Shown in pieces: positions 1,011-26,749 of a stretch of 32,000 bases of DNA. Origin of the DNA: Lyngbya sp. CCY1209 (GTDB taxonomy: Bacteria > Cyanobacteriota > Cyanobacteriia > Cyanobacteriales > Microcoleaceae); assembly GCF_035615495.1 (NCBI RefSeq), contig NZ_JAJENU010000642.1:1-32000 (forward strand), read 5' to 3'. The notes beneath the pieces are model-generated. The model did not search any database, had not been told where the DNA came from, and saw only the letters and a list, made by a program, of their open reading frames with translations. Within the stretch, counting starts at the first letter, position 1. The number at the start of each line of letters is the position of its first letter. Both the position numbers and the translations under genes were made by a program.

Positions 1011-4000
1011 TTATCTCATATTTTGGTCAAATTTTTCGCTTTTTTCCCAACCATTTGAAGACTTGACCGTGAGCGGGTCTGCGGAGACCGACGGGCCGGG
1101 GGCGGAATTCGGTGCGCCCTCCCCGGGGGGGGAGGTGGGCAGTTCGAGCCAAAATTGACTCCCCACGTCCGGCTGCGACTCGACCCCGCAGCGCCCGCCC
1201 ATGCGCTCGATCCCGCGTTTGACGATCGCCAACCCGATCCCCGTGCCGGGGTAGGATTCCACGCCGTGGAGGCGCTCGAACACCCGGAAGATGCGATCGT
1301 GGTACTGGGGGTCGATGCCGATGCCGTTGTCTCCCACCCACAACCGCGCCCAGCCGTCGCTTTGGGTCGCCCAGATCGAAACCGTCGGCCGGACGTCGGG
1401 GGCAACGAACTTGGCGGCGTTGGCGACCAAATTCGCGATCGCCTGGTAGAGAATGCGGTAGTTCCCGTAGACGACGGGCAGATCGGGGGCAATTTTGAGT
1501 TGCACCCCCGCGTCACTCAGCTCCAAATCCAGGGTGTCCCGGATCTCCTCCAACACACCGTCGAGGGCCACCGGGTTCAGGTGGATCTCGGCCCGCCCCA
1601 GGCGGCTGTAGGCCAACAGATCTTGGATCAGGGTGTCCATGTGGGTAGCCGCGGCCATGATCCGGTGGGTGTACTCCCGGGCCATGTCGTCCGCCAGTTG
1701 GCTGCCGTAATCCTCCCACAGCGCCTGAGTCAGGCCTTGGATCGCCCGCAGGGGGGCGCGGAGGTCGTGGGAAACCGAATAGGAAAAGGATTCGAGTTCC
1801 CGGTTGCTCTTCTGGAGTTGTCGCGTCCGCACCCGCACCCGCTCTTCAAGGTGGGCGTTGAGTTGCCGGAGTTCCCGCTCCGCCTCCCGGCGGGCGATGG
1901 CGGACGCCAACAAATTCGCCACGGACTGCAGGAAGTTGACGTCGGAGTGCTCGAAGTGGCGTCGGTGGCGGGTGTGAACCCCCAAAACGCCGAACGGACG
2001 GTCGTCGGCCCCCTCGATCGCCACGCTGATGCCGCTGACGACCCCGTGATCTTTCAACAGCTCCGGGCCGGAAAACCGGGTTTCCGAGTCCAGCGATTCG
2101 ACGACGACCGGTTCGCGGCTCAGGAGGGTGTAACCCGCCTGGGAATCCCGGTCAGCCGCGACGACCGCCCGCCCCACCAAGCCTTCAGCCCAACCCACCC
2201 CCGCCCTCAACAGCAGGCCGTCTCCCCCGGGGATTCGTTGCAGGATTTTGCTGTATTCCACGCCGAGGCTCTCGGCGACTTCTGCGGCCGTCTCGTCAAA
2301 CAATTGGGAGAGCTCCAAGCCCGAGAGAGCCTTCTGGGACAGGAGGGCGACATCGGCCTGTTGGCGGAGTTGGGCGGCGAGGTTGAGTTCCGCGTTTTTC
2401 CGTTGCGTGATCTCCTCGGTGACGCCGACGACCCGCAGGACTTCCCCGGCCGTGTTGCGGACGAAGGAGGTGCGGACGCGCACCCAGATCTCGGAGCCGT
2501 CCGGCCGGCAGACGCGATATTCCTCTTCAAAGGGGGCCCCGGCGATCGCCCGCTCCAAAGCCGTTCCGACGCGATCGCGGTCCTCGGGGTGGACGGCTTC
2601 AAACCAACTGTCGGGGCGGTCGTAGAGGCTCTGGCAACTGCGCCCCCACAGCTCCTCGTAGGCGGGGCTGACATAGAGGAGCCGGCCGTAGTCGGGGGTG
2701 AAACTGAAGAAAATTTCCCGGATGTGTTCGGCGAACTGCCGGAATTTTTCCTCGGACTCTTTCAGGTCCCGGTGACGCCGTTCGAGTTCTTCCCGGGTCC
2801 GTTTGAGATCGGAAATGTCCCGGACGACGGCAATAAAGTGGTTGGGTTCCCCGGTGGGGTGGCGGCGCAGGGAACCGACAAGGGAGACCCAAACGGAGGA
2901 ACCATCTTTGCGGATGTAGCGCTTTTCCATCGCATAACTCTCGACCTGACCGGCTATCAGTTGTCGTACCCGTTCCAAATCCTCGGAGAGATCCTCGGGA
3001 TGGGTGATCGACTGAAAGGTTTTTTGCAGTAATTCTTCCCGGGTGTAGCCGACGATATCGCACAATTTTTGATTCACCCGCAGCCAACTGCCGTCAAGTC
3101 CGACGTGGGCGATGCCCACCGCCGCCTGTTCAAAGGTGGCGCGGAACAGTTCTTCCGACTCCCGCAGGGCGGTTTCAGCCCGCCGGCGATCGGCGATTTC
3201 CCGCCGCAACCGGTCGTTGCTCGTTTCCAGTTGCCGGGTGCGCTCCTCGATGCGGGCTTCGAGTTGGGCGTTGAACTGCCGGATTTGTTCTTCGAGGCGC
3301 TTGCGATCGCTGATATCCCGCCCCTCGGGGATGAGGAAAATGGTTTTTCCGTCGCCGTCCAAAATGGGGCGCAGGGAAAAGTCGATGGTGGCCGTCGCAT
3401 CACCCCGCCCCAGAACGTCAACTTCGTAGCGGACTGGCTCCCCCCGCAGTGCCCCGGCGATCGCCTCCCGCAGTTGTGCCCGGTTCTCGGCCGACCCCCG
3501 CCACCAGGGGGCTTCCCAGAAGGGCTTGCCGATGGCATCTTTCGCCTGCACCCCTGCGAAGTCGAGGGCGGTGCGGTTGGCTTCCAGGAGGGTGCCGTCG
3601 AGGTCTAGCAGCCCGACGAACTGAAAGGATTGGTTGAAGATGGCCCGGTAGCGCCGTTCCGATTGCAGCAGGGAAGTTTGCGCCTCTTCGCGGCAGGCGT
3701 CGATGCGGTTCAAACTGCGGCCGTTCCACCACAGGACGGCCGCGAAGACGAGGATGCCCAGAATGGTGCGGAGGGCGGTCAAGTTTTCGATGCCGACGGG
3801 GGAGTAAACTGCGATCGCCAACATCAACAATCCCAGCAGGATCGGGATGGCGACCGTCACCGGCAGCAGGCGTCGGATCATCATGCCCCCGGCGTAGGGG
3901 CTGCTGACTTCCGCCATCCACCCCCGGTCCGGGCGGACACCCAAGATGCTCAGGGAGAGCAGCAGCAGGGCGACGGCGGTCTGGATGTCCATCGGGTTGG

Positions 4001-4562
4001 GGGAGCCGACGTTGTAAAAGGGGGCGAAGTGGTAGAGGTGGCCGACGAGGGCCAAAATTGAGATCAGCAGGGCCAGCAGGCCGCAGAACTGGGCGGCGGC
4101 GTTGCGGCCCCTCACCGACAGCAGCACGCCGCCGCCGAGGGTGATCGCGCCGCCGGCGGTGTTGGGGGCGATCGGCCAATTGACGGCCGCGAGTCCACCG
4201 CCGGCGAAGAAATCCAGCAGGCCGACCGCCCCGATCAGCACGGCGGTCGCGCCACCGCCCCAAATCAACGCCCGGATCGGGGGGGGCGGGCTGATGCCCC
4301 GCAGGTGGTGGCGCTGCCACAGGTCGAGGGCGACCCCCGACCCGATGGCAGCCAGGGCGATGTAGCCCCGGATGGTGAGCCAGTGGGGGAGGGTGGGGGT
4401 TCCCGTCCACAGGTTCGCCGCCCATCCCAGCAACCCGACCGCTGCGATCGCGATCGCAGCCCACCGGCTCACTCGCGAAAACTGTTGGATTAACTCGACT
4501 TCCGACACCGGATCGGGTTGGGTGACGGCCGAGGTCGGACGGTTCAAGTGTCTTTCCCCCAA
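1011..4562 (-). CDS. Membrane-anchored multi-sensor histidine kinase (multi-pass N-terminus, 3 PAS-like modules, GAF, HisKA, HATPase)
   Basis: 1183-aa ORF. The first ~290 aa are hydrophobic multi-pass. PAS-like blocks are separated by a coiled coil (RKRLEEQIRQFNAQLEARIEERTRQLE). A GAF-like block follows. Kinase motifs are H-box FSYSVSHDLRAPLRAI, N-box NLVANAAKF, G1 DNGIGID and G2 GTGIGLAIV. The codon at 4562 is TTG and no in-frame ATG precedes the membrane region, so the start is uncertain. Confidence 0.9.
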   Translation of the reverse strand: MGERHLNRPTSAVTQPDPVSEVELIQQFSRVSRWAAIAIAAVGLLGWAANLWTGTPTLPHWLTIRGYIALAAIGSGVALDLWQRHHLRGISPPPPIRALIWGGGATAVLIGAVGLLDFFAGGGLAAVNWPIAPNTAGGAITLGGGVLLSVRGRNAAAQFCGLLALLISILALVGHLYHFAPFYNVGSPNPMDIQTAVALLLLSLSILGVRPDRGWMAEVSSPYAGGMMIRRLLPVTVAIPILLGLLMLAIAVYSPVGIENLTALRTILGILVFAAVLWWNGRSLNRIDACREEAQTSLLQSERRYRAIFNQSFQFVGLLDLDGTLLEANRTALDFAGVQAKDAIGKPFWEAPWWRGSAENRAQLREAIAGALRGEPVRYEVDVLGRGDATATIDFSLRPILDGDGKTIFLIPEGRDISDRKRLEEQIRQFNAQLEARIEERTRQLETSNDRLRREIADRRRAETALRESEELFRATFEQAAVGIAHVGLDGSWLRVNQKLCDIVGYTREELLQKTFQSITHPEDLSEDLERVRQLIAGQVESYAMEKRYIRKDGSSVWVSLVGSLRRHPTGEPNHFIAVVRDISDLKRTREELERRHRDLKESEEKFRQFAEHIREIFFSFTPDYGRLLYVSPAYEELWGRSCQSLYDRPDSWFEAVHPEDRDRVGTALERAIAGAPFEEEYRVCRPDGSEIWVRVRTSFVRNTAGEVLRVVGVTEEITQRKNAELNLAAQLRQQADVALLSQKALSGLELSQLFDETAAEVAESLGVEYSKILQRIPGGDGLLLRAGVGWAEGLVGRAVVAADRDSQAGYTLLSREPVVVESLDSETRFSGPELLKDHGVVSGISVAIEGADDRPFGVLGVHTRHRRHFEHSDVNFLQSVANLLASAIARREAERELRQLNAHLEERVRVRTRQLQKSNRELESFSYSVSHDLRAPLRAIQGLTQALWEDYGSQLADDMAREYTHRIMAAATHMDTLIQDLLAYSRLGRAEIHLNPVALDGVLEEIRDTLDLELSDAGVQLKIAPDLPVVYGNYRILYQAIANLVANAAKFVAPDVRPTVSIWATQSDGWARLWVGDNGIGIDPQYHDRIFRVFERLHGVESYPGTGIGLAIVKRGIERMGGRCGVESQPDVGSQFWLELPTSPPGEGAPNSAPGPSVSADPLTVKSSNGWEKSEKFDQNMR

Positions 4563-4802
4563 ATGGTGTTCAGAAAGTGGGCGCGATCGCGGCGATCGAC
4601 CGCCGATGTGTCGATCGATTCAACTTTGGATTTTAACCCGGTGACCGATGCGACGACTCACCCTCAAGAGAGAGTGTCGGGTGGGAGGGGGCGGAGGGAG
4701 CCGAGGGGGCAACGGTCAAGGGGAGGAAGAATACAGATAGGATTTTCCTCCGGTCGCCCCCCTGCCCCAGATCTTTTGCGGTCGGAATTGGATCTGATTG
4801 TT

Positions 4803-5204
4803 TTATTTTTTGTCGTCAACTTTTCGATCTTCTTCCGGAAAGCGGGTGATGTCGTCTTCGCCCAAATATTCGCCGTTCTGCACCTCGATCATCACCAGCG
4901 GGATCACCCCGGGATTGTCCACCCGGTGGGGGGTATTCATGGGGACGTAGGTGGACTGTTTGGGGGTGAGGGTAATGTCCTGACCGCCGCAGACCACCTT
5001 GGCCGTCCCCGCCACAACGATCCAGTGTTCGCTGCGGTGGTAGTGCATTTGGGTGCTGATGTGGTAGCCCGGATTGATCACGATCCGATTGATCCGGTAG
5101 CGATCGCCCTCCTCCAAAACCGTGACGTGGCCCCAGGGCGGGGTACGGGTGGGCTGGGAGGTGGCGGGGGTTTCGCTCGGTTTTTCGGTTTTGGCTTTCG
5201 TCAT
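4803..5204 (-). CDS. Small cupin protein (type II phosphomannose-isomerase C-terminal cupin-like)
   Basis: 133 aa with an ATG start. The motif HYHRSEHWIVVAGTAKV...YVPMNTPHRVDNPG...IEVQNGEYLGEDDITRF matches the cupin barrel of ManC-type mannose-6-phosphate isomerase C-termini. Confidence 0.7.
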   Translation of the reverse strand: MTKAKTEKPSETPATSQPTRTPPWGHVTVLEEGDRYRINRIVINPGYHISTQMHYHRSEHWIVVAGTAKVVCGGQDITLTPKQSTYVPMNTPHRVDNPGVIPLVMIEVQNGEYLGEDDITRFPEEDRKVDDKK

Positions 5205-9128: not shown

Positions 9129-10250
9129 ATGATTCGATTTGCAAGTCTGACGGTGGCTTGCTCCTGGCTCTTGGGTTGCGGCGCAGCCGACGGCAAAATG
9201 CAAACGAATTTAGCCGCCTTTTTATCGGCAGTCGGAGACGAAACCGACCCCTCCGATTCTCGCTACAAATATTCCGGCAGAATCGATTTTAGCGACAGTG
9301 CCAACCCCGTCATTTTCTACGGGGGTTCGATCATCAACGTCAAATTTAAAGGCACCAGCCTGAAAGCCAAATTTTCCGACAACTCCAACAACGATACGAA
9401 AGTCGGATTTATCATCGACGGCGGCGATCTGATTATCAAAGAAGTCGATAAAAATGCCTCAAAACAAGAAATAACCATCGCCACCGGACTCTCCGACGGC
9501 ACGCACACCTTGGAAATTATCAAACTGGAAGGGCCGGGAAATGGCAACCGGGGTTTGGTGTTTCACGGGTTGGTACTCGACGAAGAAAAAGGCATTCTCG
9601 CCGGCGAGAAACCGGCTTTAAAAATAGAAGTGTTCGGCGATTCCGTCACCGAAGGGGCCAGTGCAGGTTGTGCCGAAGGCGACGGCGATTGTGGCGATAA
9701 CAATGCCTATTTGAGTTTCGCCAATACGTTGGCGAGAGATTTGAATGCGGACATTCACAATAACGGCATCGCCGGTTTGGCTGTGCGGAGCGGAACCGGC
9801 TATTTTGAGAGCGGCAATACGGGACTCGATGCCACCTACGACAAACTGAGCCCTTCGTCGGAGGGCGGCTTTTCTCGGACGGACTGGGATTTCGGCCGCT
9901 ACACCCCCGATTTGGTGATTATGGCGATGGGTGTCAACGACGAATATGGCAACGGTTTGGACGACGTGCCGACGTGGAAAAATGCCTACAAAGCGATCGC
10001 CCGCGATATTTACGAAAAATATGGAAATGACAAAAACCGCCCGTTCATTTTTGCCCCGGCTCCCATATGGGCGAGAAATGCGGACAAATACGCGGAAGAA
10101 GTGGCGAACGAACTCAAACAGGAGGGTTACAACACCTGGTTTTACAACTATTCTTTTGAAGCGCAAAACGGACACCCCGATCGCGTCGAGTCCAAAAAAA
10201 TGGCGTCAGAATTGAAACAATTCATCGAAACCAACAATATTTTGAATTAA
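9129..10250 (+). CDS. Lipoprotein SGNH/GDSL-type hydrolase (CE2-like: N-terminal beta-sandwich plus esterase)
   Basis: The ORF track starts at 8970, inside the upstream gene. The in-frame ATG 9129 gives MIRFASLTVACSWLLGC, a signal peptide with lipobox LLGC. Block I is VFGDSVTEGAS and the C-terminal block is NGHPD. Confidence 0.75.
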   Translation: MIRFASLTVACSWLLGCGAADGKMQTNLAAFLSAVGDETDPSDSRYKYSGRIDFSDSANPVIFYGGSIINVKFKGTSLKAKFSDNSNNDTKVGFIIDGGDLIIKEVDKNASKQEITIATGLSDGTHTLEIIKLEGPGNGNRGLVFHGLVLDEEKGILAGEKPALKIEVFGDSVTEGASAGCAEGDGDCGDNNAYLSFANTLARDLNADIHNNGIAGLAVRSGTGYFESGNTGLDATYDKLSPSSEGGFSRTDWDFGRYTPDLVIMAMGVNDEYGNGLDDVPTWKNAYKAIARDIYEKYGNDKNRPFIFAPAPIWARNADKYAEEVANELKQEGYNTWFYNYSFEAQNGHPDRVESKKMASELKQFIETNNILN

Positions 10251-10264
10251 ACAACCATCAAGTC

Positions 10265-10285
10265 GCACAGGCAGGATGCCTGTGC
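10265..10285. terminator. Perfect 9-bp hairpin between convergent genes
   Basis: GCACAGGCA-gga-TGCCTGTGC lies between the SGNH hydrolase stop (10250) and the SBP stop (10324). No clear U-tract. Confidence 0.45.
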
Positions 10286-10323
10286 TACCGATTCGATACC
10301 GTAGGGTCAAAAAAAGATCCGAT

Positions 10324-11994
10324 TTACTCCGGATTTACTTTCTCCAGGGGCCAGAACGGAAACTGCTGGTTAACTTGCAGGCGGATTCCCCCGATATTAT
10401 TTTGGGCGAAGATGTAGGTTTTATCTTGCCAGAGGGGGATGAAAGGAACGTCGCTGGCGAGGCTTTCTTGAATTTCCAAAAAGATCGCCCGACGCTTTTG
10501 GGGGTCTTGTTCAGTCCGCTGCTGGTCGATCAATTCGTTGACGCGATCGCTATAATAAAACGATCCCTGATATTGACTCGCCCCCTCTTCACATCCCGTT
10601 TCTTCCGAACCTTTCGCGCAGCCCAAAAAGGGCTGGATGTAATTGTCCGCATCCAAGAAATCGGCGTACCAATCCAACATGAACGTCGGATAAATTCCCT
10701 TGTCCAAATTTTGATAGGCGGTGGTGGTTTCCACGCTCTTGGGTTCGAGTTGCAACGCGCCGCCCAAATTTTCCTGGGCCAGGGCTTTCAGCGTCGCCGC
10801 CAGTGAGGCTCGCTTGTTGGAATTGGCGCCGTACCACAGTTCCACCACGGCGGGATTTTCCGGGGTATATCCGGCCTCGGCGAGGAGTTGTTTGGCTTGG
10901 TCAAAATTGCCGTCGCCGTAGGTTTGTTGGAAGACGGGGCTGTAACTTTCAAAGGTGGTAGGGATGAGGCTGTAGAGGGGTTCGGCCTGTCCCCGCAAGA
11001 TGCGATTATTGATTAAATTGCGGTCGATCAAAGCCGCGATCGCCCGCCGGACTTCCGGTTGATTCAGGGGTTCGGAATTGACGTTCAACACCATATAATT
11101 GACCGTATTTCCGTCCGCCGCGATCGCTTGCCAGTTCCCCGCTTCGGCCCCTTCCAATAAACTCGCGATCTGGTCGGGTTCCAAGGAAACGTAAGCCACA
11201 TCCACCGCATTGCTGCGAAACGAATTGAACAGGTTGGCGGAACTGGTAAATCGCTGCAAATCGATCCCCTCGTTGGCGGGTTTTTCCCCCCAATAATTCT
11301 CGAACGGGTCAAGGCGAATCACGTCCACGCCGTATTCCGCCAACACATAGGGTCCGGTGCCCACAAACATATCGGGTTGGAAGGGTCCGTCGATGGCGTA
11401 GGCGGCGGGAGACACCGCACAGGTGCCCGAAAAGGCCAGCAGGGACGGAAACGCCGCGAAGGGCCGTTTGAGGGTGATGGTGAGTTCGTATTCCCCCGTC
11501 GCCTCAATTGTGTCTATGGTGTCCGCCAGCAGGGACGAGGGGGGCCCGCCTTTTTGGATGAACCGGTCCAGGGAAAATTTCATCGCCTCGGCGTCGAAGG
11601 GGGTCCCGTCGTGGAACACCACCCCTTCCCGCAGCGGGATGGTATAGGTGAGGTTGTCGTCGCCGACGGTGGGAAAATCCGTCGCCAGTTCCGGTTGGAG
11701 TTCCGTGGTGCCCAGTTTGTAGGCGTAGAGGCGATCGCCGAGGTTGTAGAGGAGGGTTCCGGAGATCACCTCGTAGGCGTCCGCCGGGTCGAGGGTGCGG
11801 AGGTTCTGGGTCGTCCCGACGACAATGCGATCGGTGTCCGAAGTGGCGGGGGTTTGGCCCTCGGGTCCGGTTCCGCAGGCGATCGCAACGAAGGCGACCA
11901 AACAAAATAAAGCCAGAAATCGGGCGATTGCGGGAATTCGGCGGCGGCGATGCCATCCCGGAGAGGGCGATCGCATCGGGTGTGTTTTCTGCAT
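10324..11994 (-). CDS. ABC transporter substrate-binding lipoprotein, family 5 (peptide/nickel/opine type)
   Basis: 556 aa with an ATG start. The signal peptide with lipobox is FVAIAC. Family-5 style blocks include TLDPADAY...LYNLGDRLY, FHDGTPFDAEAMKFSLDR, GTGPYVL and VPFIPLWQ. No permease or ATPase genes are adjacent. Confidence 0.85.
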   Translation of the reverse strand: MQKTHPMRSPSPGWHRRRRIPAIARFLALFCLVAFVAIACGTGPEGQTPATSDTDRIVVGTTQNLRTLDPADAYEVISGTLLYNLGDRLYAYKLGTTELQPELATDFPTVGDDNLTYTIPLREGVVFHDGTPFDAEAMKFSLDRFIQKGGPPSSLLADTIDTIEATGEYELTITLKRPFAAFPSLLAFSGTCAVSPAAYAIDGPFQPDMFVGTGPYVLAEYGVDVIRLDPFENYWGEKPANEGIDLQRFTSSANLFNSFRSNAVDVAYVSLEPDQIASLLEGAEAGNWQAIAADGNTVNYMVLNVNSEPLNQPEVRRAIAALIDRNLINNRILRGQAEPLYSLIPTTFESYSPVFQQTYGDGNFDQAKQLLAEAGYTPENPAVVELWYGANSNKRASLAATLKALAQENLGGALQLEPKSVETTTAYQNLDKGIYPTFMLDWYADFLDADNYIQPFLGCAKGSEETGCEEGASQYQGSFYYSDRVNELIDQQRTEQDPQKRRAIFLEIQESLASDVPFIPLWQDKTYIFAQNNIGGIRLQVNQQFPFWPLEKVNPE

Positions 11995-12300: not shown

Positions 12301-14397
12301 ATGTTATATGGGGCCCGATCACCAATGGAACAACCAGACAATGCCAGCAGTGAAAGTACCTTAGCGGCGATCGTCTTTACGGATGTTGAGTCGTTTACCC
12401 CCAAAATGGCGGCCGATGAGAAACATACCCTCGGTTTGCTAGACCGGGACTTCAGAATGATGCGGCGATCCTGTCAGCATCACGAGGGAAAAACGATCAA
12501 ATCCCTGGGGGACGGATTGCTGATGTACTTCAACCGTGCCGAACAGGCCGTTACCTGTGCGACGGAGATCCAAACCGCGATCGCCAAAACCGCCGCCGAC
12601 CTCCCCGAACGGGATATTTTAGTTCACCGCATCGGAATCCACCTGGGGGATATTTACTTAGTTGATGACGGCCGGGACGTGATGGGAAATGGGGTCAACA
12701 TCGCTGCCCGACTGCAATCCCTCGCACCCCCGGGAGGAGTCTGCCTTTCCGCCACCGTTTACGAGGTCGTCAAAAATAGCCTCACCCCCAAACCCACCTA
12801 TATCGGACTGCGAAAACTCAAAGGCATTTCCGAACCCGTCCCCCTCTACCATATCGCCTCTTCCCTGACCCGCGATCGCTCCCGGAAACGGGTTTTTATT
12901 TCCTATTCCGCCAAAGATCCCGACACCTCCCTCGCCCAAAAATTCTTTGAAGCCTTGTCGGAGGCGGGACAGGCCGCATTTATGGCCGGCGCCAGCCTAA
13001 AATTGGGGGAAGATTGGCCGTACCGGATCGAAACCGAATTGCAACAATGCGATTATTTACTATTGCTATTATCGGAGCGATCGGCGACCAGCGAAATGGT
13101 GACGGAGGAAGTGCGGCAGGTCAAAAAACTGCAAGAAAAACGCGACGGAAAACCGATCATCCTACCCATTCGCGTCCAATTTCCCTTGACTTCTCCCCTC
13201 AACTACAACCTGCGGGGTTATTTGGATCGGATTCATCAGCGGGAGTGGAATTCGGACGCGGACACGCCCAAACTGATCGGAGAAGTCATCAATTTAATTC
13301 AAACCGGAAAGGTTCCGGAAGCGTCCAATATTTCCCAACCTAAAGCCTGGGGCGATCGCACATCCCGTCCCCAACCGGCGGCGGTGCCCGAACTTCCGGA
13401 AGGGCAAATGGATGTCGCTTCTATCTTTTATGTAGAACGTCCCCCCGCCGAATCTCGATGTTATGAAACCATCCTCCAATCGGGGGCACTCATTCGGATC
13501 AAAGCCCCCCGCCAGATGGGAAAAACCTCTCTGATGGCGCGAGTTTTGCACCACGCCCAAAAGAAACACGGATATTGTTCCGTCCCCCTCAGCTTTCAGT
13601 TGGCAGACGGGAAAATTTTTGCGGATTTGGACAAATTTTTGCGCTGGTTTTGCGCCAGCGTGGGGCGGAGGTTGCGCCTCCCCAATCAGTTGAATGACTA
13701 CTGGGATGAAATTTTCGGCAGCAAAGATAACAGTACGGTTTACTTTGAGGAATATCTGCTCGAAAATATCGACAGTCCGCTCGTTTTGGGACTCGATGAA
13801 GTCGATCGCGTCTTTGAACACCCGGAAATTGCGGGAGACTTTTTGGGACTGTTGCGGGCGTGGCATGAACAAGCCAAAAATAACGACATTTGGAAAAAAT
13901 TGCGCCTCGTGGTCGTGCATTCCACGGAAGTTTATGTGCCGATGGATATCAACCAATCGCCCTTCAATGTGGGACTGCCCATTGAATTATCGGAATTGAC
14001 CACGGAACAGGTACAAGAATTGGTCGAATTGCACGGATTGAAATTCACCGCCGACGAATTGGAATCTCTGATGCAAATTGTCGGCGGACATCCCTATTTA
14101 ATTCGGGTGGCACTCTACTATATTTCCCGTCAAGATACGACGATTTCAGAATTTTTAAAAACCGCCCCCACGGAAGCCGGATATTACGGCGATCACCTGC
14201 GGGGACACCTGTGGAAGTTGCAACAATATCCCGAGTTGGCGGCGGCGATGGAACAGGTTGTCAACAGTGACGAACCCGTGCGGTTGGAGTCGATAGTGGC
14301 ATTTAAGCTGCACAGTTTGGGGCTGGTGACGCTGTGCGGAAATGATGCCGGGGTGCGATCGGATTTGTATCGGCTTTATTTCCGCGATCGCCTTTAG
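12301..14397 (+). CDS. Class III adenylate/guanylate-type cyclase - TIR - AAA-like P-loop ATPase fusion protein
   Basis: 698 aa (an alternative ATG at 12325 gives MEQPDN...).
- Cyclase, aa ~22-185: [28 protein letters not shown].
- TIR, aa ~197-335: [10 protein letters not shown]...[36 protein letters not shown].
- ATPase, aa ~375-698: FYVERPP...[12 protein letters not shown] (Walker A), LVLGLDEVD (Walker B). Confidence 0.85.
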
Positions 14398-14401: not shown

Positions 14402-14600
14402 CCCTCACCCCCGGCTCCTCTCCCAATCTTGGGCGAGGGGAGGAAAACTCAGCCCTCACCCCCGGCCCCTCTCCCAATTTTGGGCGAGGGGAGAAGAATT
14501 CAGCCCTCACCCCCGGCCCCTCTCCCAATCTTGGGCGAGGGGAGAAGAATTCAGCCCTCACCCCCGGCCCCTCTCCCAATCTTGGGCGAGGGGAGGAAAA
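14402..14600. repeat. Four head-to-tail copies of a 51-bp GC-rich hairpin-containing unit
   Basis: Copies start at 14402, 14453, 14504 and 14555. The consensus is CCCTCACCCCCGGCCCCTCTCCCAATCTTGGGCGAGGGGAGAAGAATTCAG. Each holds the inverted repeat CCCCTCTCCC/GGGCGAGGGG (9 of 10 pairs, 6-nt loop). The array fills most of the 238-nt spacer between the two ATPase genes. Confidence 0.9.
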
Positions 14601-14635
14601 ACAAATATTATCAAAAATTACTTTCTCGAATCACT

Positions 14636-17299
14636 ATGAATCATCAAAACCCGATTTATCAAGTGGGTGGAAGCCTCCCCGCCGATGCCCCCACCTACGT
14701 CAAACGCGAAGCCGACGACGAGTTATATGATGCCCTCAAACGGGGGGAATTCTGCTACGTCCTCAACTCACGCCAGATGGGAAAATCCAGCTTGCGGGTG
14801 CAGACGATGCGGCGATTGCAAGCTGAGGGTGTGGCTTGTGTCGCGATCGATATTACCCAAATTGGCAGTCACAATATCACCCCCGATCAGTGGTATTTGG
14901 GGATGATAAGAACCGTCGCCAGTACCCTCTCGACTTCCCTCGGCAAACGGGCAAAACTGGCGGCTTGGTGGCGCGATCGCGAGTTGATTTCTCCGGTACA
15001 ACGACTGGGCGAATTTATCGAAGATATATTGCTAAAAGAAATTGAGAATAATATCGTTATTTTCATCGATGAAATTGATAGTGTCATCAGCCTCAATTTT
15101 GATGTCGATGACTTTTTCGCCTTGATTCGCGCCAGCTACAACAAACGCGCCGATCGCCACCATTATAAACGCCTCAGCTTTACTCTCTGCGGTGTCGCCA
15201 CTCCGTCAGATTTGATCGCGGACAAAACTCGAACGCCCTTCAATATCGGAAAAGCGATCGCCCTCGGCGGTTTCCGGATGCCCGCGGCGTTGCCCCTCGC
15301 CCGAGGGTTGGAATCCCGCTGTGAAAACCCGGAAGCGGTCTTAACTGAAATCCTAAATTGGACGAACGGACAGCCGTTTTTGACTCAAAAAATTTGCCGA
15401 TTAATTTTAGAATATTCCGGCCAAATTATTGCCGGGGAAGAAGCTCAGGTTGTTGCCGATATTATTTCCCAACAAATCATCAAAAATTGGGAGGCGAACG
15501 ACGAACCGGAACACTTCAAAACGATCCGCGATCGCCTCCTCCGCAATCCCCAACGAGCCGGTCGGCTGCTGGGACTGTATCAGCGGGTCTTGAATGCGAT
15601 CGACGGAGGGATTGCCGCCGATGATAGTCCCGAACAAATGGAACTGCGCTTGAGTGGATTGGTCGTAAAAACTGGCGGTCAATTGAAAGTTGCAAACCCC
15701 ACTTACAAAGGAATTTTTAATCAAGATTGGGTGACGCAGGAACTCGCCCAACTGCGACCCTATGCCGAAGCTTTCGAGGCTTGGGAGAAGTCCGGGCGTC
15801 AGGATGAGTCACGATTGTTGAAGGGGGAGGCGTTAACTGAGGCGAAAGCCTGGGCGAGAGGAAAAAGTTTGAGCGACAAAGATTATCAGTTTTTGGCGGC
15901 GAGCGAACAACTCGACAAACAGGAAATTCAGGCGGCGTTGGAAACGAAATTGGCGGCGGAACAGGAAGCAAAGGAAATTTTAACGAAAGCAAAAAGACGG
16001 GCTTCTCTGCTGTCTTGGATTGCGATCGGAATCTTGGGTTTGTCTTTCGGGATGGCGGCTTTTTATTTGAGACGAACCTACACCAATCTCAACTTAGCTG
16101 AAATTCGCCTCACCAGTGCTGGAGCAAAGGAATTGCACCTCTCCGGAGGCCAGGAACTCAGTTCAATTGTCACCGCACTGCAAGCCAGCCACAACTTGAA
16201 AAAATTACCAGTTTCCTTGTGGTCAAAAGACGATACCCGGGGGAAAGTGATCTCAATCCTTCATGCAGTCCTGGATGGTTCCCGAGAATACAATCGTATC
16301 GAGGGGCATCGGAGTCTGGTCAACGGCGTGGCCTTCAGCCCGGACGGGAAAACCATCGCTTCGGCCAGTAATGACAACACGGTGAAATTGTGGAAGCGCG
16401 ACGGCACCCTCCTCCAAACCCTCGATGGGCATCGGGATTATGTCAACGGCGTGGCCTTCAGCCCGGACGGGGAAACCATCGCTTCGGCCAGTGCAGACAA
16501 CACGGTGAAGTTGTGGACAGTCGATTTAGATGACCTGATGGCGCAAGCGTGTCAGGTGGTAGGGGACTACTTGAAAAATAACCCCAATGTCACCGATGAG
16601 GAACGCCGTTACTGTGGGGTGGACGCTTCGGCAACGGCTCGGTTTTTGCAAGGCGAACAGTTGGCAGCGGAGGCTCAAATTGATGAGGCGGTTTCTCGCT
16701 TTCAACAGGCTGTCAAGCTCGACCCGAACTTTCGTTCAAGTTCGGCTCAGATTTTGGTCAAAAGAGGAGAGTTTTTGGCTCGGGATGAGGAGAGAGTTAA
16801 TCGAGCCATTTTGGCTTTTCAGAACGCTGTAAAATTGGATTCAGATTTAAAGTTTGATCCTGATAATAAAGCCCGTGCGATCGCTTCAATTTTCGAGGGG
16901 AGAGATTTGGCAGAAGCGGGTAAAATCGATGAGGCGATCGCAAAATTTAAGGATGCTCAAAAATTAGATGCTGATGTCAAAATTTCGGCTTGGTCTTGGA
17001 ATGTGCTCTGTCGGTACGGCGGGCTGAATCGACAAGCTGAGAAGGTGATGTTCGCCTGCGATAAAGCGGTCGAAATCGAACCGAAAAATGGGCGGATTCG
17101 TGAGATTCGGGGTTTGGCGATGGCTTTGACGGGTGATTTTGATGGGGCGATTGAGGATTTGGAGATGGCGTACAGTGAATGGGAGGAATGGATGGGTGAT
17201 GAAAATGAAAAGGCAAAACGAAAAGCTTGGATCGATACTCTTAAAAAGGGTGAAAGTCCGTTTACCGATGAGGTATTAGAACAATTGAAAAATCAGTAA
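14636..17299 (+). CDS. AAA-like P-loop ATPase - coiled coil - TM helix - 2 WD40 repeats - TPR-like C-terminal protein
   Basis: The ORF track starts at 14342, inside the upstream gene. I prefer ATG 14636 ([27 protein letters not shown]...), which matches the usual N-terminus of this ATPase family.
- Walker A is SRQMGKSSL and Walker B is [10 protein letters not shown].
- The TM helix [21 protein letters not shown] lies at about 16006-16068.
- WD40 units are [25 protein letters not shown] x2 (16305-16520).
- TPR-like helices span about 16640-17200. Confidence 0.8.
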
Positions 17300-18567: not shown

Positions 18568-19461
18568 ATGGGAGGGTGGAACGCTCTGACAACACCTATG
18601 CCCTACAAACAATATACGCTGACACCGACCCGCGACCCCTATTCCTCCACCGGAATCTATATTCCCATCGACATAGAAGATGCGATCGCCGAATTGGATA
18701 AAGCCCTCTCCGACACCGTAAAAACCGAACTGAAAGCGGCTAACAATCTCTTCGATTATCACTTCACCCTGGGGGAATGGATGCGCCAAAATTGGGGGCT
18801 GTGGTTGGGTAGCCGGCTGGCGCAGCACTTTCACGATATGAACGTACTCAACCCGGACTTGATGTCGATTTTTCTCCTCCGATCCTATCAGGAACACCTG
18901 AACCGTCCCCCGGAAACCGTCGAAACGCTGCTGCACTCCCTGGAAAACAAGCGCCTGACGCCGGATAATTTTTTCCGTAAAGTCGGCGAAGTCGCCCAGA
19001 AACTGGTCAATTGCGATCGCGCCAGCTTTTGGTTAATTGACCGAGAAAAGGAGGAGGTGCGGACGAAAGTTGTCGTCAACGACAAACAGAAAACCGTCCG
19101 AGTTGCGATCGGTCAAGGCTTGATGGGACAGGTCGCCGAATCGGGCGAAATGATTGCCATTCCGTTCGATTTTTATAAAAGTTCCCATCCCCAAGTCGAA
19201 GCGATCAAAGCCCTCGACGATCGCGTTTTTTACCGCACCTGTAGCACCCTAACCATTCCCGTCCGCAAAGCTTCGGGGGAATTGCTGGGGGTGATGCACC
19301 TGATCAATAAAACCCAACCCGGCAATTTTCCCCCCTATCATCCGGAAACCCACCCCACCGCGCCGGAACGCTGGCGCACCAGTTTCAATCGAGAAGATAT
19401 CGCCATTATCGATCGCTTGAATCAAACTGTCTCTCAGTTGATTGATCGAGTTTTTTATTAA
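18568..19461 (+). CDS. GAF-domain protein with an uncharacterised N-terminal domain
   Basis: 297 aa. The C-terminal half is GAF-like (CDRASFWLIDREKEEVRTKVV...GLMGQVAESGEMIAIPFD...TLTIPVRKASGELLGVMHLINK). I did not recognise the N-terminal ~130 aa. Confidence 0.65.
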   Translation: MGGWNALTTPMPYKQYTLTPTRDPYSSTGIYIPIDIEDAIAELDKALSDTVKTELKAANNLFDYHFTLGEWMRQNWGLWLGSRLAQHFHDMNVLNPDLMSIFLLRSYQEHLNRPPETVETLLHSLENKRLTPDNFFRKVGEVAQKLVNCDRASFWLIDREKEEVRTKVVVNDKQKTVRVAIGQGLMGQVAESGEMIAIPFDFYKSSHPQVEAIKALDDRVFYRTCSTLTIPVRKASGELLGVMHLINKTQPGNFPPYHPETHPTAPERWRTSFNREDIAIIDRLNQTVSQLIDRVFY

Positions 19462-22564: not shown

Positions 22565-23881
22565 ATGGCTCATGTAGTTGTGATTGGAGCGGGACTCGGG
22601 GGATTGCCGACGGCCTACGAACTGCGGCACCACTTGCCCGCCGAGCATAAGGTGACATTAATTTCCGACAAGCCGGAGTTCACGTTCGTCCCCGGATTAA
22701 TTCGGGTCGGGTTGAATCTGAACCCTTTGGAGCACATCCAACTGGAGCTCGAACCCCTGGCGCGGCGGCACGGTTTGGACTTGATCTGCGGACACATCAC
22801 CCACTTCGACCCGGAAAATCGCCATTTGATCGTGGATGGGCAAACCCTGGAGTTCGACTATGCGGCGATCGCCACCGGGGCATCCCTGGCCTTCGACGAA
22901 GCGCCGGGACTCGGCCCCCACGGTGGCTACACCCAGTCCGTGTGCACCCCCGACCACGCCGTAGAAGCGCGGGAGGCGTGGTTGGAATTCTTGAAAGATC
23001 CCGGGCCCCTTGTCGTGGGGGCGATGCCGGGGGCGGGGTGTTTCGGGCCAGCTTATGAATTCTTATTAATGGCGGATTGGGAACTGCGGCGGTTGGGACT
23101 GCGCGATCGCGTCACGTTAACCTATATCACGCCGGAACCCTACGCCGGCCATCTGGGAGTCGGGGGGGTGAAATACGCCGAAGAACTGACGGGGGATCTG
23201 ATGCGATCGCGGGGTGTGGAAATCATCGACAACGCCGCCATCACCGAAGTCGAACCCGACACCATCATCCTCTCCGACGGACGCCGCATCCCGTTCAAAT
23301 ACTCCATGATCCTGCCCGCCTTCCGGGGTGCCAAATTCATCCGGGAGACACCGCGCCTGGGCAATGAAAAAGGATTTATCCCCGTCGGACCCACCTACCA
23401 GCATCCGGAATTTCCCGCCGTCTACGCCCTCGGCGTCGCCGTCCACCTGGAACAGCCGGACAAAACCCCCGTCCCCATCGGACTGCCGAAAAGCGGGGAA
23501 ATGACGGAAGTGATGGGGGTGGCCGTCGCCCACAACATCGCGATCGAACTGGGGGCGATTTCCGAACCCCACCTGACGCCCACCTTGGAGGCCCTGTGTT
23601 TTGCCGAATTCGGCGATACCGGCATCCTCTACATCGCCGCCCCGGTGATCCCCGATCCGGAAGTGGGCAAGCGCCGCCATTCTCTGGCGTTGAAAGGGCC
23701 GTGGGTGAATTGGGCGAAGGCCGCCTTCGAGGAGTATTTCCTGCTGAAAATGCGCTTCGGTTTGGGACTGCCCTGGTTCGAGAAATTCGGGCTGCGGCTG
23801 TTGTTCCGGCTGTCCCTGTTCAAAAACCTGCCCAAAAATTTCCGCCAGTCCGTCGAGAAATCCACCACCGCCGTGGGTTGA
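22565..23881 (+). CDS. sqr: Sulfide:quinone oxidoreductase (type I-like SQR flavoprotein)
   Basis: 438 aa with an ATG preceded by GGAGGA. The N-terminal FAD fold is MAHVVVIGAGLGGLPTAYEL. Conserved Cys contexts are SVCTPDHA, GAGCFGPAYEF and EALCFAEFGD. The protein resembles cyanobacterial SQRs of the Oscillatoria/Aphanothece type, from memory. Confidence 0.9.
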   Translation: MAHVVVIGAGLGGLPTAYELRHHLPAEHKVTLISDKPEFTFVPGLIRVGLNLNPLEHIQLELEPLARRHGLDLICGHITHFDPENRHLIVDGQTLEFDYAAIATGASLAFDEAPGLGPHGGYTQSVCTPDHAVEAREAWLEFLKDPGPLVVGAMPGAGCFGPAYEFLLMADWELRRLGLRDRVTLTYITPEPYAGHLGVGGVKYAEELTGDLMRSRGVEIIDNAAITEVEPDTIILSDGRRIPFKYSMILPAFRGAKFIRETPRLGNEKGFIPVGPTYQHPEFPAVYALGVAVHLEQPDKTPVPIGLPKSGEMTEVMGVAVAHNIAIELGAISEPHLTPTLEALCFAEFGDTGILYIAAPVIPDPEVGKRRHSLALKGPWVNWAKAAFEEYFLLKMRFGLGLPWFEKFGLRLLFRLSLFKNLPKNFRQSVEKSTTAVG

Positions 23882-23935
23882 TGTGAAATTTGAGCCGACT
23901 TCAATCCTTCGTCAACCCCGACAACCCCACCCCAC

Positions 23936-23958
23936 CCTCCCGTTATCAAAGGGAGGGC
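23936..23958 (+). terminator. Hairpin downstream of sqr
   Basis: CCCTCCC-gttatcaaa-GGGAGGG lies 55 nt after the sqr stop. No U-tract follows. Confidence 0.3.
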
Positions 23959-24206
23959 AGGGAATCCGATTCACACCTTTGATATCAGGTCCGTTCAAAT
24001 AGTTGGGATCGAAAGGATTTTTAAAATTCGACCGTCAGAAATCTACATGAGAACTGATGATCAGAATTGGCTCTGACTGATCATTGGGGATTGCTATCTT
24101 CCGATCGATTGACGAGGACAGATCGGACGGCCGTATCGATCCGTCCTCCGGCTTGTCAAAATCTGCCAAATTCCCCCTGCGATAGGTACACTTCGCGGAT
24201 CGCCTA

Positions 24207-24524
24207 ATGGAAAACAGCACCTCCATCGACGACTTTGAAATTCTAGCCGATCGCTTCAAAATTTTAAGCGAACCGAGTCGGTTACAAATTCTGGCGGCAA
24301 TTTGTCGCCGGGAGTGCAACGTCAAGGAAATTTGTCGGCGCACCGGACTCCACCAAGCCAACGTTTCCAAACACCTGCAATTGTTGCGATCGGCGGGGGT
24401 GGTGGCTTGTCGCCGCGTGGGCGTCTGCCGCTATTACCGCATCATCGATTCCGACTTGCTGGGGCTGTGCGCCCAATCTGTCTTTAAGGGAGACAAACCA
24501 TCCAAAGATTGCACTCAAGAATAA
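24207..24524 (+). CDS. ArsR/SmtB-family transcriptional regulator (Cys-rich)
   Basis: 105 aa. The wHTH core is LSEPSRLQILAAICRRECNVKEICRRTGLHQANVSKHLQLLRSAGVVACRRVGVCRYYRI. Seven cysteines lie at positions 33, 37, 43, 68, 74, 88 and 102. Confidence 0.85.
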   Translation: MENSTSIDDFEILADRFKILSEPSRLQILAAICRRECNVKEICRRTGLHQANVSKHLQLLRSAGVVACRRVGVCRYYRIIDSDLLGLCAQSVFKGDKPSKDCTQE

Positions 24525-24547
24525 ACGATTATAGCGCTGCTAGAAGA

Positions 24548-24714
24548 GGGTGTAGGGTGTAGGGTGTAGGGTGTAGGGGTGGGAGTCCCGCCGAAAGCGC
24601 TAAAGCGCCACAACAAAAAATGTGCGATCGCCGAGTTGTTGGGATTGAGCCCGACCGAAAGCGCTGAAGCGCAACAACAAAAATGTGCGATCGCCTTGTT
24701 GTGGGGATTGAGCC
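24548..24714. repeat. Heptamer tandem repeat followed by two ~61-nt direct repeats spaced 64 nt apart
   Basis: GGGTGTA x4 spans 24548-24575. Next, CCGAAAGCGCTaAAGCGCcACAACAAAAAATGTGCGATCGCC..GTTGTTGGGATTGAGCC (24591-24651) recurs with a few changes at 24655-24714. Each copy holds a HIP1 site inside a CAACAA/TTGTTG inverted repeat. Confidence 0.75.
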
Positions 24715-24874
24715 GCCCACGGTCTTCAAGTTTACACCCCCATCCAGACTGAGGTTTGTGGCAGTCCGCGAAACGACAGGGGGTTGGGGGAATCTCCGAC
24801 CCCCACAAAACGGTAACGACATATTCTCTCTGTGTTCTCTGTGCCTCTGTGGTGAAAATTCCGATCGCCCAAAA

Positions 24875-26749
24875 TTAGAAGCTGAGGAAATTGTCGGCGC
24901 CCAATTCCTGGGGATAAACCCCCTCAACCGTCGCCAAATCCGTGCCGTCCGTCATCTCCACCAACGTGCCGCCGGGAGTCGCGCTCAGGGACAGTTGCGA
25001 GAACGTCAAACCGCCGGCCAAACCGATGATATCTTCGCCGGGGACGAAATCGCCGAAGGTGTCGAAACCGCCGTCCGGTTGCAAGTCGAAGCGATCGCCC
25101 CCTTCCCCGCCGATGAGCAGGTCATCTCCCTTATTGCCACTGAGAATATCGTGACCCTGGCGCCCCAACAGGATATCATTTCCCTGTCCGCCATATAACT
25201 GGTCGTCCCCGGCTTCCCCGAGAATCGCATCGTCGCCGCCGAACCCCGCCAAAACCTCGGAAGCCGCGCTTCCCGTCAACTCGTCATTCGCCGGAGTCCC
25301 CAGGTTGGGCTCAGAAGTCGCATCCCGGGACACCCGCACCAAACCGGAATCCACCAGGGAAACGGCTGCGTCCGCCTGAATCAGGCCGGAACCGCTGCGA
25401 AAATCGACTCCGGCGACATCCGCATCGATCGCCGTCCCGTTGAGAACCGCCTCGATTTCTGCGGGGGTCAGACTCCCCGAACCGCCGGCCGCATCCAACA
25501 TCAGGGCCGCCACCCCCGCCGCGTGGGGGGCCGCCGCCGAGGTGCCGTAGAAGGACTCAAACCCGGAAACCGTGGTGCTGACGCCGTTGGGGGCGACCAA
25601 CGTGGGTTTCAGGCGTTCTTCGGGGGTCGCCAAAGCGGTGCCGGTGGTGTCGAATAAAATCGAAGTGCCGCCGGTGGAGGAAGAGGACCGGACGCTGGGG
25701 GTGGCGACTCCGAAGGCCGGGGTGCTGTCGTAGTTGACGGCGCCGACGGCGATCGCACTTTCGGCGTTGGGATGTCCGAAGACGGTAGAACTATTGTAGT
25801 CGAATTCAAACCCCTCGGCATCGTCGTAGAAATTGATGTATTTCATCAACTGCGGGTCGTCGCTTCCCACCCGCTTGCCGATCAGAATGTTGAAGCTCTG
25901 GCCGTCGGTGTCGTTGGTGAAGGAGAGCAGTTCCAGGGGGTCGCCGCCGAGGTTGTCATCCATACTCGCCATGATGATATCGGATGCATCTAAAGTACCG
26001 AGGTCGTCGTTGGTGGTGATAAAGATGTCTAGGTCGCCCGTCGCACCCGGGCCGCCGAGGGAGGCGAAGGGCTCGGACCACTGAAAAGAGAGGCGCATCG
26101 AATCGCCGCGGGCCAAACTGAAGCGGTTGAAGACGTCGCTGCCGCCGAAACTGTGGGCTTCGTATTCGATGCCGTCGAGGGTGAAGGTTTGGCCGGAATT
26201 GCTGAAGGGATTTTCGTAGGAGCGATCGCCGTCATTTCCGGCCGCGGAAAAGTAGGTGATTCCTCGGGCGACGGCGTTATCGACGGCCCGCGCCGCCAGT
26301 CCATCTTGGAAGAAGGGTTGGTCGGTGAAACCCATGTCGTCCACGATGATATCGACTCCGGCATTGGTCAAACTTTCGATCGCCCCGGCCATGTCGGTGT
26401 TGTCGGAAACGCTGTAGAAAAACAGTTCCGCGCCGGGGGCGACGTCGTGGAGAATTTGCAGCATCGCCCGCCCTTCGTCGCGGCCTTTTTCGGGGGAGCC
26501 TTCATTTAAAACGGTGACGGGGGCGGTGTAGCCGTTGGGGTTGCCGAGTCCGGGGAGGTCGCCGGCGATGATGTTATCGGCCGCGCCGGAACCGGTGGAT
26601 AATACGTCGTAGCTGTCGGAGATGACGCCAATTTTGATGCCGTTTCCGTCGATTCCGGACAGGTTGCGGATGTCATTGGATGCGATCGCGATGTCGCCTT
26701 CGCTCTCAACTGTTCCGACTCGATTGATGACTGTATTATCCAAACTCAT
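24875..26749 (-). CDS. Subtilase-fold (clan SB, S8-like) peptidase-like protein with C-terminal RTX calcium-binding repeats
   Basis: The ORF begins at TTG 26776. ATG 26749 (MSLDNTV...) has GGGAGG 5-6 nt upstream. Motifs are IKIGVISDSYD, DEGRAMLQILHDVAPGAELFFY, FSAAGNDGDRS and FYGTSAAAPHAAGVAALML. GGxGxD nonapeptide repeats lie at about 25088-25246 (GFGGDDAILGEAGDDQLYGGQGNDILLGRQGHDILSGNKGDDLLIGGEGGDRF). No N-terminal signal peptide. Confidence 0.75.
   Translation of the reverse strand: MSLDNTVINRVGTVESEGDIAIASNDIRNLSGIDGNGIKIGVISDSYDVLSTGSGAADNIIAGDLPGLGNPNGYTAPVTVLNEGSPEKGRDEGRAMLQILHDVAPGAELFFYSVSDNTDMAGAIESLTNAGVDIIVDDMGFTDQPFFQDGLAARAVDNAVARGITYFSAAGNDGDRSYENPFSNSGQTFTLDGIEYEAHSFGGSDVFNRFSLARGDSMRLSFQWSEPFASLGGPGATGDLDIFITTNDDLGTLDASDIIMASMDDNLGGDPLELLSFTNDTDGQSFNILIGKRVGSDDPQLMKYINFYDDAEGFEFDYNSSTVFGHPNAESAIAVGAVNYDSTPAFGVATPSVRSSSSTGGTSILFDTTGTALATPEERLKPTLVAPNGVSTTVSGFESFYGTSAAAPHAAGVAALMLDAAGGSGSLTPAEIEAVLNGTAIDADVAGVDFRSGSGLIQADAAVSLVDSGLVRVSRDATSEPNLGTPANDELTGSAASEVLAGFGGDDAILGEAGDDQLYGGQGNDILLGRQGHDILSGNKGDDLLIGGEGGDRFDLQPDGGFDTFGDFVPGEDIIGLAGGLTFSQLSLSATPGGTLVEMTDGTDLATVEGVYPQELGADNFLSF

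Follow-up and report, generated by a model that had tools for sequence, protein, structure and literature searches.

Domain architecture of gene A

The window, a 32,000-nucleotide (nt) stretch of DNA from the cyanobacterium Lyngbya sp. CCY1209 (contig NZ_JAJENU010000642.1), carries on its forward strand two neighboring genes, here termed gene A and gene B, that share a paralogous ATPase module, AAA_35. Gene A combines this module with a class III nucleotidyl cyclase and a TIR domain in a single polypeptide, and gene B combines it with repeats of the type found in sensors. The features of gene A are the following (aa, amino acids; ORF, open reading frame; pLDDT, predicted local distance difference test score; STAND, signal transduction ATPase with numerous domains; NTPase, nucleoside triphosphatase).

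12301-14397, + strand: gene A, cyclase-TIR-AAA_35 protein of 698 aa (ORF list, Pfam)
12349-12861, + strand: class III nucleotidyl cyclase domain, aa 17-187 (alignments, Foldseek)
12889-13305, + strand: TIR domain, aa 197-335 (Pfam, profile-to-PDB alignments)
13306-13392, + strand: linker between TIR and ATPase, aa 336-364, of low confidence and probably flexible (pLDDT)
13393-14385, + strand: AAA_35 STAND-like NTPase module, aa 365-695 (Pfam, domain model)

The protein is 100% identical to NCBI protein P0001 of Lyngbya sp. CCY1209, which is annotated solely as an "AAA-like domain-containing protein". The NCBI gene model begins at M9 and gives 690 aa; M1 otherwise lies at 12301. An earlier reading of the DNA made without database searches (the sequence-only reading) had described a cyclase fused to a TIR domain at 12364-13305, which corresponds to aa 22-335 of gene A, and its numbering from M1 at 12301 and its motif strings are correct. 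Pfam searches recovered Guanylate_cyc (PF00211; aa 22-159, E = 3.6e-13), TIR_2 (aa 198-309, E = 1.5e-16), and AAA_35 (aa 365-695, E = 3.5e-150). In a full-length AlphaFold2 (AF2) model built from an 81-sequence alignment (pLDDT 86.1), the final strand of the cyclase spans aa 180-185 and strand A of the TIR domain begins at aa 197, leaving a linker of 11-12 residues in agreement with the twelve counted earlier; residues 347-363, in the linker between the TIR domain and the ATPase, have a pLDDT of <50. Gene A terminates 3 residues past AAA_35 (695/698), and a C-terminal repeat sensor is absent. Pfam scans found no domain binding cyclic mononucleotides (cNMPs) in gene A, gene B, or the other window ORFs scanned, bearing out the earlier statement that gene A has no such cyclic nucleotide-binding (CNB) domain and that its logic must differ from that of Pycsar.

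The cyclase domain

The six residues on which the catalytic assignment of the cyclase depends are encoded as follows.

12382-12384, + strand: D28, metal-binding Asp
12499-12501, + strand: K67, substrate-Lys position
12511-12513, + strand: D71, metal-binding Asp
12676-12678, + strand: D126, 7 residues ahead of N133
12697-12699, + strand: N133, catalytic-Asn position
12709-12711, + strand: R137, conserved Arg

A HMMER search of the PDB with aa 1-200 retrieved 3mr7 (E = 1.5e-28), Mycobacterium tuberculosis Rv1900c (2.9e-15), and Mycobacterium avium Ma1120 (9e-15), and the alignments put all six residues, which had previously been placed by eye, on functional positions. Against Rv1900c, D28 and D71 lie opposite the metal-binding Asps, R137 lies opposite the conserved Arg, and K67 and N133 lie opposite N342 and H402, residues that, as Sinha et al. 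reportedly described in 2005, correspond to the substrate Lys and the catalytic Asn of canonical cyclases. The cyclase of the AF2 model matches the same three structures in Foldseek with target template modeling (TM) scores of 0.85-0.89 and a root mean square deviation of ~2 Å. The K67/D126 pair is typical of ATP use and points to ATP as the substrate, and the presence of all six catalytic residues on one chain is the signature of a homodimer. Hence, as had been predicted, gene A apparently encodes a catalytically competent cyclase of the homodimeric type. The cyclases of class III work as obligate dimers, their active sites being formed where the two subunits meet.

The signature DDKDNR occupies the six catalytic positions in 59 of the 81 family members. 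In 10 members (P0035-38, P0045-47, P0049, P0051, and P0055 in alignment A1), the metal-binding Asps and the Asn and Arg are kept and the pair at positions 67/126 reads A/Q, S/Q, S/T, S/S, E/K, or Q/E. As the metal-binding and transition-state residues persist while the specificity pair varies, this pattern is suggestive of distinct nucleotide products and not of decay. The gene A cyclase scores 70 bits on the model of the adenylate cyclase LipJ versus 27.5 bits (E = 3.9e-7) on the PADLOC models of PycC; by these scores it appears much closer to the canonical adenylate cyclases, which argues that it is a domain of that type and not a Pycsar cyclase.

The TIR domain

Two adjoining Glu codons mark the putative active site of the TIR domain.

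13105-13107, + strand: E269
13108-13110, + strand: E270, equivalent of the catalytic Glu

As a single sequence, the TIR domain gave weak matches to solved TIRs (E = 0.15-1), with E270 placed at the same position as by a profile of 67 family TIRs, which retrieved Cat1 (E = 4.7e-5), Roq1 (1.1e-3), and RUN1 (2.4e-3) from the PDB. E270, in the segment SEMVTEEV, stands opposite the catalytic Glu in Roq1 (CLEEL), RUN1 (CLDEL), and Cat1 (CWDEL). All 81 members of the cyclase-bearing subfamily have E269, and 76 of them have E270. In the AF2 model, the domain displays the alternation of strand and helix and aligns with the TIR domain of RPP1. The sequence-only reading had pointed to a Glu of the kind used by NADase-active TIRs in this segment; the residue itself aligns as proposed, and the activity drawn from it is less secure, since Met266 takes the place of the Trp in WxxxE. 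This substitution leaves the predicted NADase activity plausible but not assured. TIR NADases require self-association.

The AAA_35 module is a STAND/NLR-like ATPase by predicted fold

The motifs of the ATPase in gene A are the following.

13519-13527, + strand: Walker A GKT, invariant in the family
13795-13800, + strand: Walker B DE, invariant in the family
14083-14100, + strand: GxP-like GGHPYL, conserved in the family

GKT and DEVD are invariant in AAA_35 modules of the gene A type (executor-type), and the Walker A and B motifs are invariant in those of the gene B type (partner-type) too. Searching the PDB with the AAA_35 sequence brought up nothing beyond a RecA concatemer, matched through the P-loop, and a weakly matching ORC2. 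With no useful sequence relative in that database, we classified the module from its predicted fold. Foldseek placed a domain-only AF2 model (pLDDT 89.7; predicted TM-score [pTM] 0.83) closest to the archaeal STAND-like proteins PAB2304 and SSO1545, followed by Avs3, Roq1, Avs4, Cdc6/ORC, Dark, and RPP1. In the full-length model, the TIR domain and the ATPase together align with RPP1, a plant TIR-NLR (NLR, nucleotide-binding leucine-rich repeat receptor), across 565 columns. By the evidence of these models, AAA_35 is a STAND/NLR-like ATPase composed of a nucleotide-binding, a helical, and a winged-helix part. STAND ATPases oligomerize upon activation.

Gene A thus shares with the TIR-NLR and TIR-STAND proteins (RPP1, Roq1, and the TIR-bearing Avs) an N-terminal TIR domain followed by a nucleotide-binding, helical, and winged-helix ATPase; the likeness includes the alignment of RPP1 over the TIR and nucleotide-binding regions and the retention of the catalytic Glu. 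Unlike the TIR-NLRs, it has an ATPase without a PDB sequence relative beyond the P-loop and a second enzyme, the cyclase. It further differs from them in that its own chain lacks sensor repeats, which instead lie on the separate paralogous ATPase encoded by gene B.

A paralogous partner gene with sensor-type repeats

Downstream of gene A, we identified the following features (bp, base pairs).

14402-14601, no strand assigned: 51-bp tandem repeat, 3.9 copies, 94% match (Tandem Repeats Finder)
14636-17299, + strand: gene B, sensor-type AAA_35 partner of 887 aa, likely ATG start (Pfam)
14669-15721, + strand: AAA_35 of gene B (Pfam)
14771-14791, + strand: Walker A RQMGKSS of gene B
15062-15082, + strand: Walker B FIDEIDS of gene B
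16007-16063, + strand: predicted transmembrane helix of gene B, 19 residues (Kyte-Doolittle 1.99)
16283-16534, + strand: two WD40 repeats of gene B
16634-17173, + strand: TPR repeats of gene B

The AAA_35 modules of genes A and B are 23% identical (E = 1e-13). A listed ORF of 985 aa from 14342 is an artifact that reads through the intergenic repeat, its spurious N-terminal extension containing a repeated peptide encoded by the 51-bp repeat; the ATG at 14636 is the likely start of gene B. Each repeat unit holds a hairpin with a 12-bp stem (CCCCTCTCCCAA / TTGGGCGAGGGG), and the repeat might represent a miniature mobile element or act in regulation at the RNA level between the two genes.

Hidden Markov models built from the family were searched through all fetched loci for AAA_35 modules of the partner type. 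We took as well flanked the 42 loci whose flanks extend for at least 6 kb on either side. Of these, 37 (88%) have a partner-type gene no more than 6 kb away; at 30 of the 37, the partner follows downstream on the same strand, still inside that distance, and the ORFs often overlap. Chance adjacency, by a rough estimate, would account for ~3% even if an 8-Mb genome held 20 AAA_35 genes, versus the 88% observed. The partners vary in their C termini, as illustrated by AAA_35-WD40 in Roseofilum, AAA_35-FHA in Leptolyngbya 'hensonii', and AAA_35-Sll1247 in a metagenomic genome. WD40 repeats are present in 29/61 partner C-terminal regions, and 46/61 have a segment above the classical hydropathy threshold, positioned in ~40 of these between the AAA_35 module and the WD40/TPR or other domain at the C terminus; going by the hydropathy window alone, the sensor domain of the partners would lie outside the cytoplasm.

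Executor and partner modules are 20-24% identical. At one locus (L055:1318-3465, − strand), a 716-aa ORF without a TIR domain has an AAA_35 of the partner type (57 bits) and, C terminal to it, one of the executor type (501 bits), a fusion that provides a Rosetta-stone-type hint of interaction between the two. Several AAA_35 genes may also lie in a row (L011:2420-7780 and 9869-11962; L006; L007), with two of the executor type bearing differing N-terminal modules and one to three of the partner type; an executor gene of L011 is apparently split by a frameshift (2420-4336 and 4340-5113).

These data bear on the possibility that gene A is a stand-alone, homo-oligomeric system that senses through its AAA_35 or N-terminal domains, with gene B being an independent paralogue that arose by tandem duplication. 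Such an explanation would accommodate the 5 of 42 well-flanked loci that lack a partner, the repeat-filled spacer of 238 nt between genes A and B, and the locus of P0005, where the downstream neighbor is a kinase gene and not an AAA_35 gene. We nevertheless regard it as doubtful, given the frequency of the partner and the overlapping ORFs, the complementarity of the two types (an effector without a sensor versus a sensor without an effector), the fusion of both types in L055, and an identity of 20-24% that indicates an ancient pair rather than a recent duplication.

A constant TIR-AAA_35 chassis with interchangeable modules

The combination of cyclase, TIR, and AAA_35 recurs, at 53-72% identity, in >80 clusters (formed at 90% identity) from Roseofilum, Symploca, Coleofasciculus, Leptolyngbya, Aerosakkonema, and others. 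Relatives occur at at least 599 loci in species-representative genomes, and the best 80 of these at least 599 loci are all cyanobacterial, most matching just aa 190-698, i.e., the TIR-AAA_35 portion. Across 71 proteins, Pfam identified N terminal to the TIR domain CHAT (11), HTH_3 (11), cyclase (10), HTH of the sigma70_r4 (9) and GerE (5) types, trypsin (3), caspase (3), kinase (2), and Macro (1) domains. What stays constant in the family is the TIR-AAA_35 chassis, which has no sensor domain; the cyclase is just one among many modules that can be exchanged on it.

The position of the cyclase on the chassis also varies. It lies C terminal to the ATPase in several relatives, and the nine of these that were checked (P0054, P0065-67, P0070, P0056, P0059, P0077, and P0085) all keep DDKDNR; P0056, P0059, and P0077 have in addition an N-terminal trypsin domain and P0085 an N-terminal kinase domain. 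An apparent degeneration of the cyclase in the kinase- and trypsin-fused relatives proved to be an alignment artifact, their cyclase being C terminal and intact. The TIR-AAA_35-cyclase architecture is shared by P0086, which is outside the nine checked for DDKDNR, and by the protein encoded at L082:1036-3378. The cyclase cassette itself, at 50-60% identity, recurs in other architectures (P0122-P0268), including cyclase-NACHT (P0124), AAA_35-cyclase-CHASE2 (P0123), CHAT-cyclase-CHASE2 (P0131), cyclase-WD40 (P0136), TIR-cyclase-TPR (P0227, with the signature DDNGNR), and a tandem double cyclase (P0139). Many proteins of ~400 aa join it to DUF8082; one locus with such a stand-alone relative was examined, and it contains cyclase-DUF8082 and no MoxR or vWA genes.

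Several paralogues may be found within a single genome, and relatives are present on plasmids of Nostoc, Tolypothrix, Calothrix, and Allocoleopsis. A search of phage genomes found none. Outside the cyanobacteria, plasmid AP024153.1 (Abditibacteriota) encodes at 23690-25324 a TIR-AAA_35 relative that is 37% identical across aa 157-698.

The modularity of the chassis is informative with respect to whether the cyclase feeds the TIR domain. Relays of this kind exist as two-gene systems: Pycsar, in the portion of PMC11224242 that describes it, pairs a pyrimidine cyclase with a separate cyclic-pyrimidine receptor-effector, and a 2026 preprint on Pucsar states in its summary of the system that cGMP made by PucC activates PucTIR. 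Gene A could by analogy be a one-chain relay of the Pycsar/Pucsar type in which cyclic AMP (cAMP) or cGMP binds an unrecognized site on the TIR domain or ATPase of the same or a neighboring molecule and triggers NAD+ cleavage, and the weak matches to the PADLOC PycC models could be read in this direction. We consider this very improbable: the cyclase is far closer to LipJ and 3mr7 than to PycC, and no cNMP-binding domain was found in gene A, gene B, or the window. Moreover, the same chassis has the cyclase swapped for proteases, kinases, or HTH domains or shifted to the C terminus, so that the TIR domain cannot generally depend on a cyclase product. The occurrence of the cyclase at either end of the chassis and its replacement by proteases and kinases argue against a dedicated cyclase-to-TIR relay, and its intact C-terminal versions argue against specific coupling to the TIR domain in cis; retention of the catalytic residues at both positions fits activation by coassembly better than a fixed geometry relative to the TIR domain. 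Together with the NLR/STAND-like fold, the swappable cyclase on a conserved chassis indicates that the fusion is a modular effector cassette and not a collapsed Pycsar system.

A proposed two-gene sensor/executor model

Gene A bears effectors without a sensor, gene B bears a sensor without an effector, and both are built on a paralogous ATPase, which argues for a pair of sensor and executor. We therefore propose, with a probability of about 0.5, that genes A and B constitute a two-gene NLR-like (STAND) sensor/executor module of filamentous cyanobacteria in which both enzymes are activated by induced proximity. One of the options raised in the sequence-only reading was that the ATPase may gate both enzymes, and it is this option that the present evidence favors.

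The analysis establishes the domains of genes A and B, the catalytic residues and how well these are kept, the likeness of the ATPase fold to STAND proteins, the exchange of modules on the chassis, and the pairing of the genes. We infer from this that the two products hetero-oligomerize, that proximity activates the enzymes, what the enzymes make, and that the pair serves in conflict or immunity, and the sequence of events might be as follows. A trigger would bind the WD40/TPR repeat domain of the gene B product, and ATP-dependent co-oligomerization of both AAA_35 modules would then gather copies of gene A. In this coassembly, the cyclase domains could pair head to tail, completing active sites that produce a cyclic purine nucleotide, most likely cAMP because of the K67/D126 pair. 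The TIR domains could likewise pack into composite sites that cleave NAD+, resulting in its depletion or in an ADP-ribose (ADPR)-type signal. Cyclase and TIR would thus be parallel outputs of one ATPase switch, with cAMP acting in trans on receptors encoded elsewhere, an arrangement that would explain the absence of a cNMP receptor.

Several observations weigh against this proposal. The window is a stretch of housekeeping chromosome with no defense island, and the PADLOC defense models match just the isolated cyclase and TIR domains, weakly. With respect to the TIR domain, the Trp of WxxxE, four residues before the Glu, is Met in 57/67 family members, and in the wider TIR-AAA_35 family a Glu is found at the position of E270 in 51/67 and the doublet EE in 45/67; the TIR domain could be mainly a scaffold. 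The HTH N termini of many chassis members would suit regulation no less than immunity. Adjacency does not prove hetero-oligomerization of genes A and B, and to this may be added the five partnerless loci and the 238-nt spacer described above. The transmembrane prediction for the partners, drawn from a Kyte-Doolittle window alone, is weak. Finally, a search of a literature library found no paper on this family, on an AAA_35 (PF14516) pair, or on a one-chain fusion of cyclase and TIR, and a 2026 survey of defense STANDs mentions neither cyclases nor AAA_35.

Some of these points would be expected if gene A were a STAND-regulated adenylate cyclase in ordinary cAMP signaling, responding to an environmental or envelope cue, with the TIR domain serving in oligomerization or as an adaptor and without any role in immunity or cell death. 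Precedents exist in mycobacteria, where fusions of a cyclase to a STAND ATPase without a TIR domain (Rv0386, Rv1358, and Rv2488c) have long been known (PMC2447327). The housekeeping context, the HTH N termini, the missing Trp, the lack of an E270-equivalent Glu in roughly one in four members of the wider family, and the resemblance of the partner to a membrane sensor can all be accommodated by such a role. Opposed to it are the invariance of E269 and the presence of E270 in 76/81 members of the cyclase-bearing subfamily; the identity of the other modules (CHAT, caspase, trypsin, and Macro), which are typical effectors of conflict systems; and the occurrence of several paralogues per genome, some on plasmids, in the manner of diversified immune receptors. 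On balance, we hold ordinary signaling to be somewhat unlikely.

The proposed sensor/executor module can be taken a step further, to a prokaryotic counterpart of the paired NLRs in which a membrane-spanning sensor reads an extracytoplasmic cue through its WD40/TPR domain and nucleates the cytosolic executor, which then simultaneously fires NAD+ cleavage by the TIR domain, which would disable the affected cell, and a diffusible cAMP alarm from the cyclase, which could reach neighbors in the filament. We put forward this extended version as a speculative one that is unlikely to hold in full.

Relationship to known systems

Paired or sensor-helper NLRs are known from plants, as in RRS1/RPS4 and the NRC network, and from animals, as in NAIP/NLRC4. 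Genes A and B resemble them in being side-by-side paralogous STAND proteins with sensing and execution apparently divided between them. They differ in the predicted membrane anchor of the sensor, in the ATPase family, and in being prokaryotic. Among known systems, it is these pairs and the TIR-NLR/TIR-STAND receptors that the module would most resemble in its working.

Like Pycsar and Pucsar, the system of gene A brings a TIR domain together with a cyclase of the class III type, whose product is likely a cyclic mononucleotide. Unlike Pycsar, whose cyclase and receptor-effector are separate in the account excerpted from PMC11224242, it has one chain, no CNB domain, and both enzymes on a STAND ATPase. 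Assignment to Pycsar was rejected, as a separate CNB effector in an operon was not found in the window. Thoeris was set aside as well, given just weak TIR matches (ThsB, 8e-5; ThcB4, 1.4e-6) and no ThsA-like gene in the window. We likewise discounted a VMAP/iSTAND ternary system: neither the window nor four homologous loci contain MoxR or vWA genes, and, unlike iSTAND, the ATPase of gene A has intact Walker motifs.

The passages of Kaur et al. 2020 (PMC7159879) that concern NTP-dependent conflict systems of multicellular bacteria describe these systems from computational analysis. The gene A family shares with the systems in those passages its phyla, the presence of several differently equipped paralogues per genome, and the placement of cNMP cyclase, TIR, trypsin, caspase/CHAT, and kinase modules on a constant core. 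The same passages do not describe an AAA_35 pair or a one-chain fusion of cyclase and TIR.

A further point of comparison is the Rv0386 family, in which, as in gene A, a class III cyclase is N terminal on a STAND-type chain; the nearest solved relatives of the gene A cyclase include mycobacterial Rv1900c and Ma1120. Unlike gene A, members of this family have no TIR domain and carry sensor repeats and an HTH domain on the same chain (cyclase-ATPase-TPR-LuxR). Rv0386 has noncanonical specificity residues.

Other genes of the window

Two further sets of genes in the window were considered.

18568-19461, + strand: DUF6794-GAF protein
24878-26776, − strand: subtilase (Peptidase_S8)
27335-29044, − strand: subtilase (Peptidase_S8)

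GAF domains can bind cyclic nucleotides, and the DUF6794-GAF gene starts 1.3 kb downstream of gene B. It was rejected as the cNMP receptor of the system, as two reverse-strand genes intervene and it is absent from the homologous loci examined. The two subtilase genes adjoin each other, and one has RTX calcium-binding repeats; they are unrelated to gene A.

Implications

If the proposed sensor/executor module is borne out, one NLR-like assembly would drive a cyclic-nucleotide signal and NAD+ cleavage in parallel, rather than in series as in Pycsar. The division of paralogous STAND proteins into sensor and executor, best known from the NLR pairs of plants and animals, would then also be bacterial and possibly membrane anchored. 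In the version with a membrane-spanning sensor, the variation of the specificity pair among the relatives would represent diversification of the alarm nucleotide. The TIR-AAA_35 family, with its at least 599 loci annotated solely as "AAA-like domain-containing protein", is widespread and well conserved; it offers a natural set of swappable effectors on one chassis and is suited to asking how the oligomerization of a STAND ATPase activates an enzyme that depends on dimerization.

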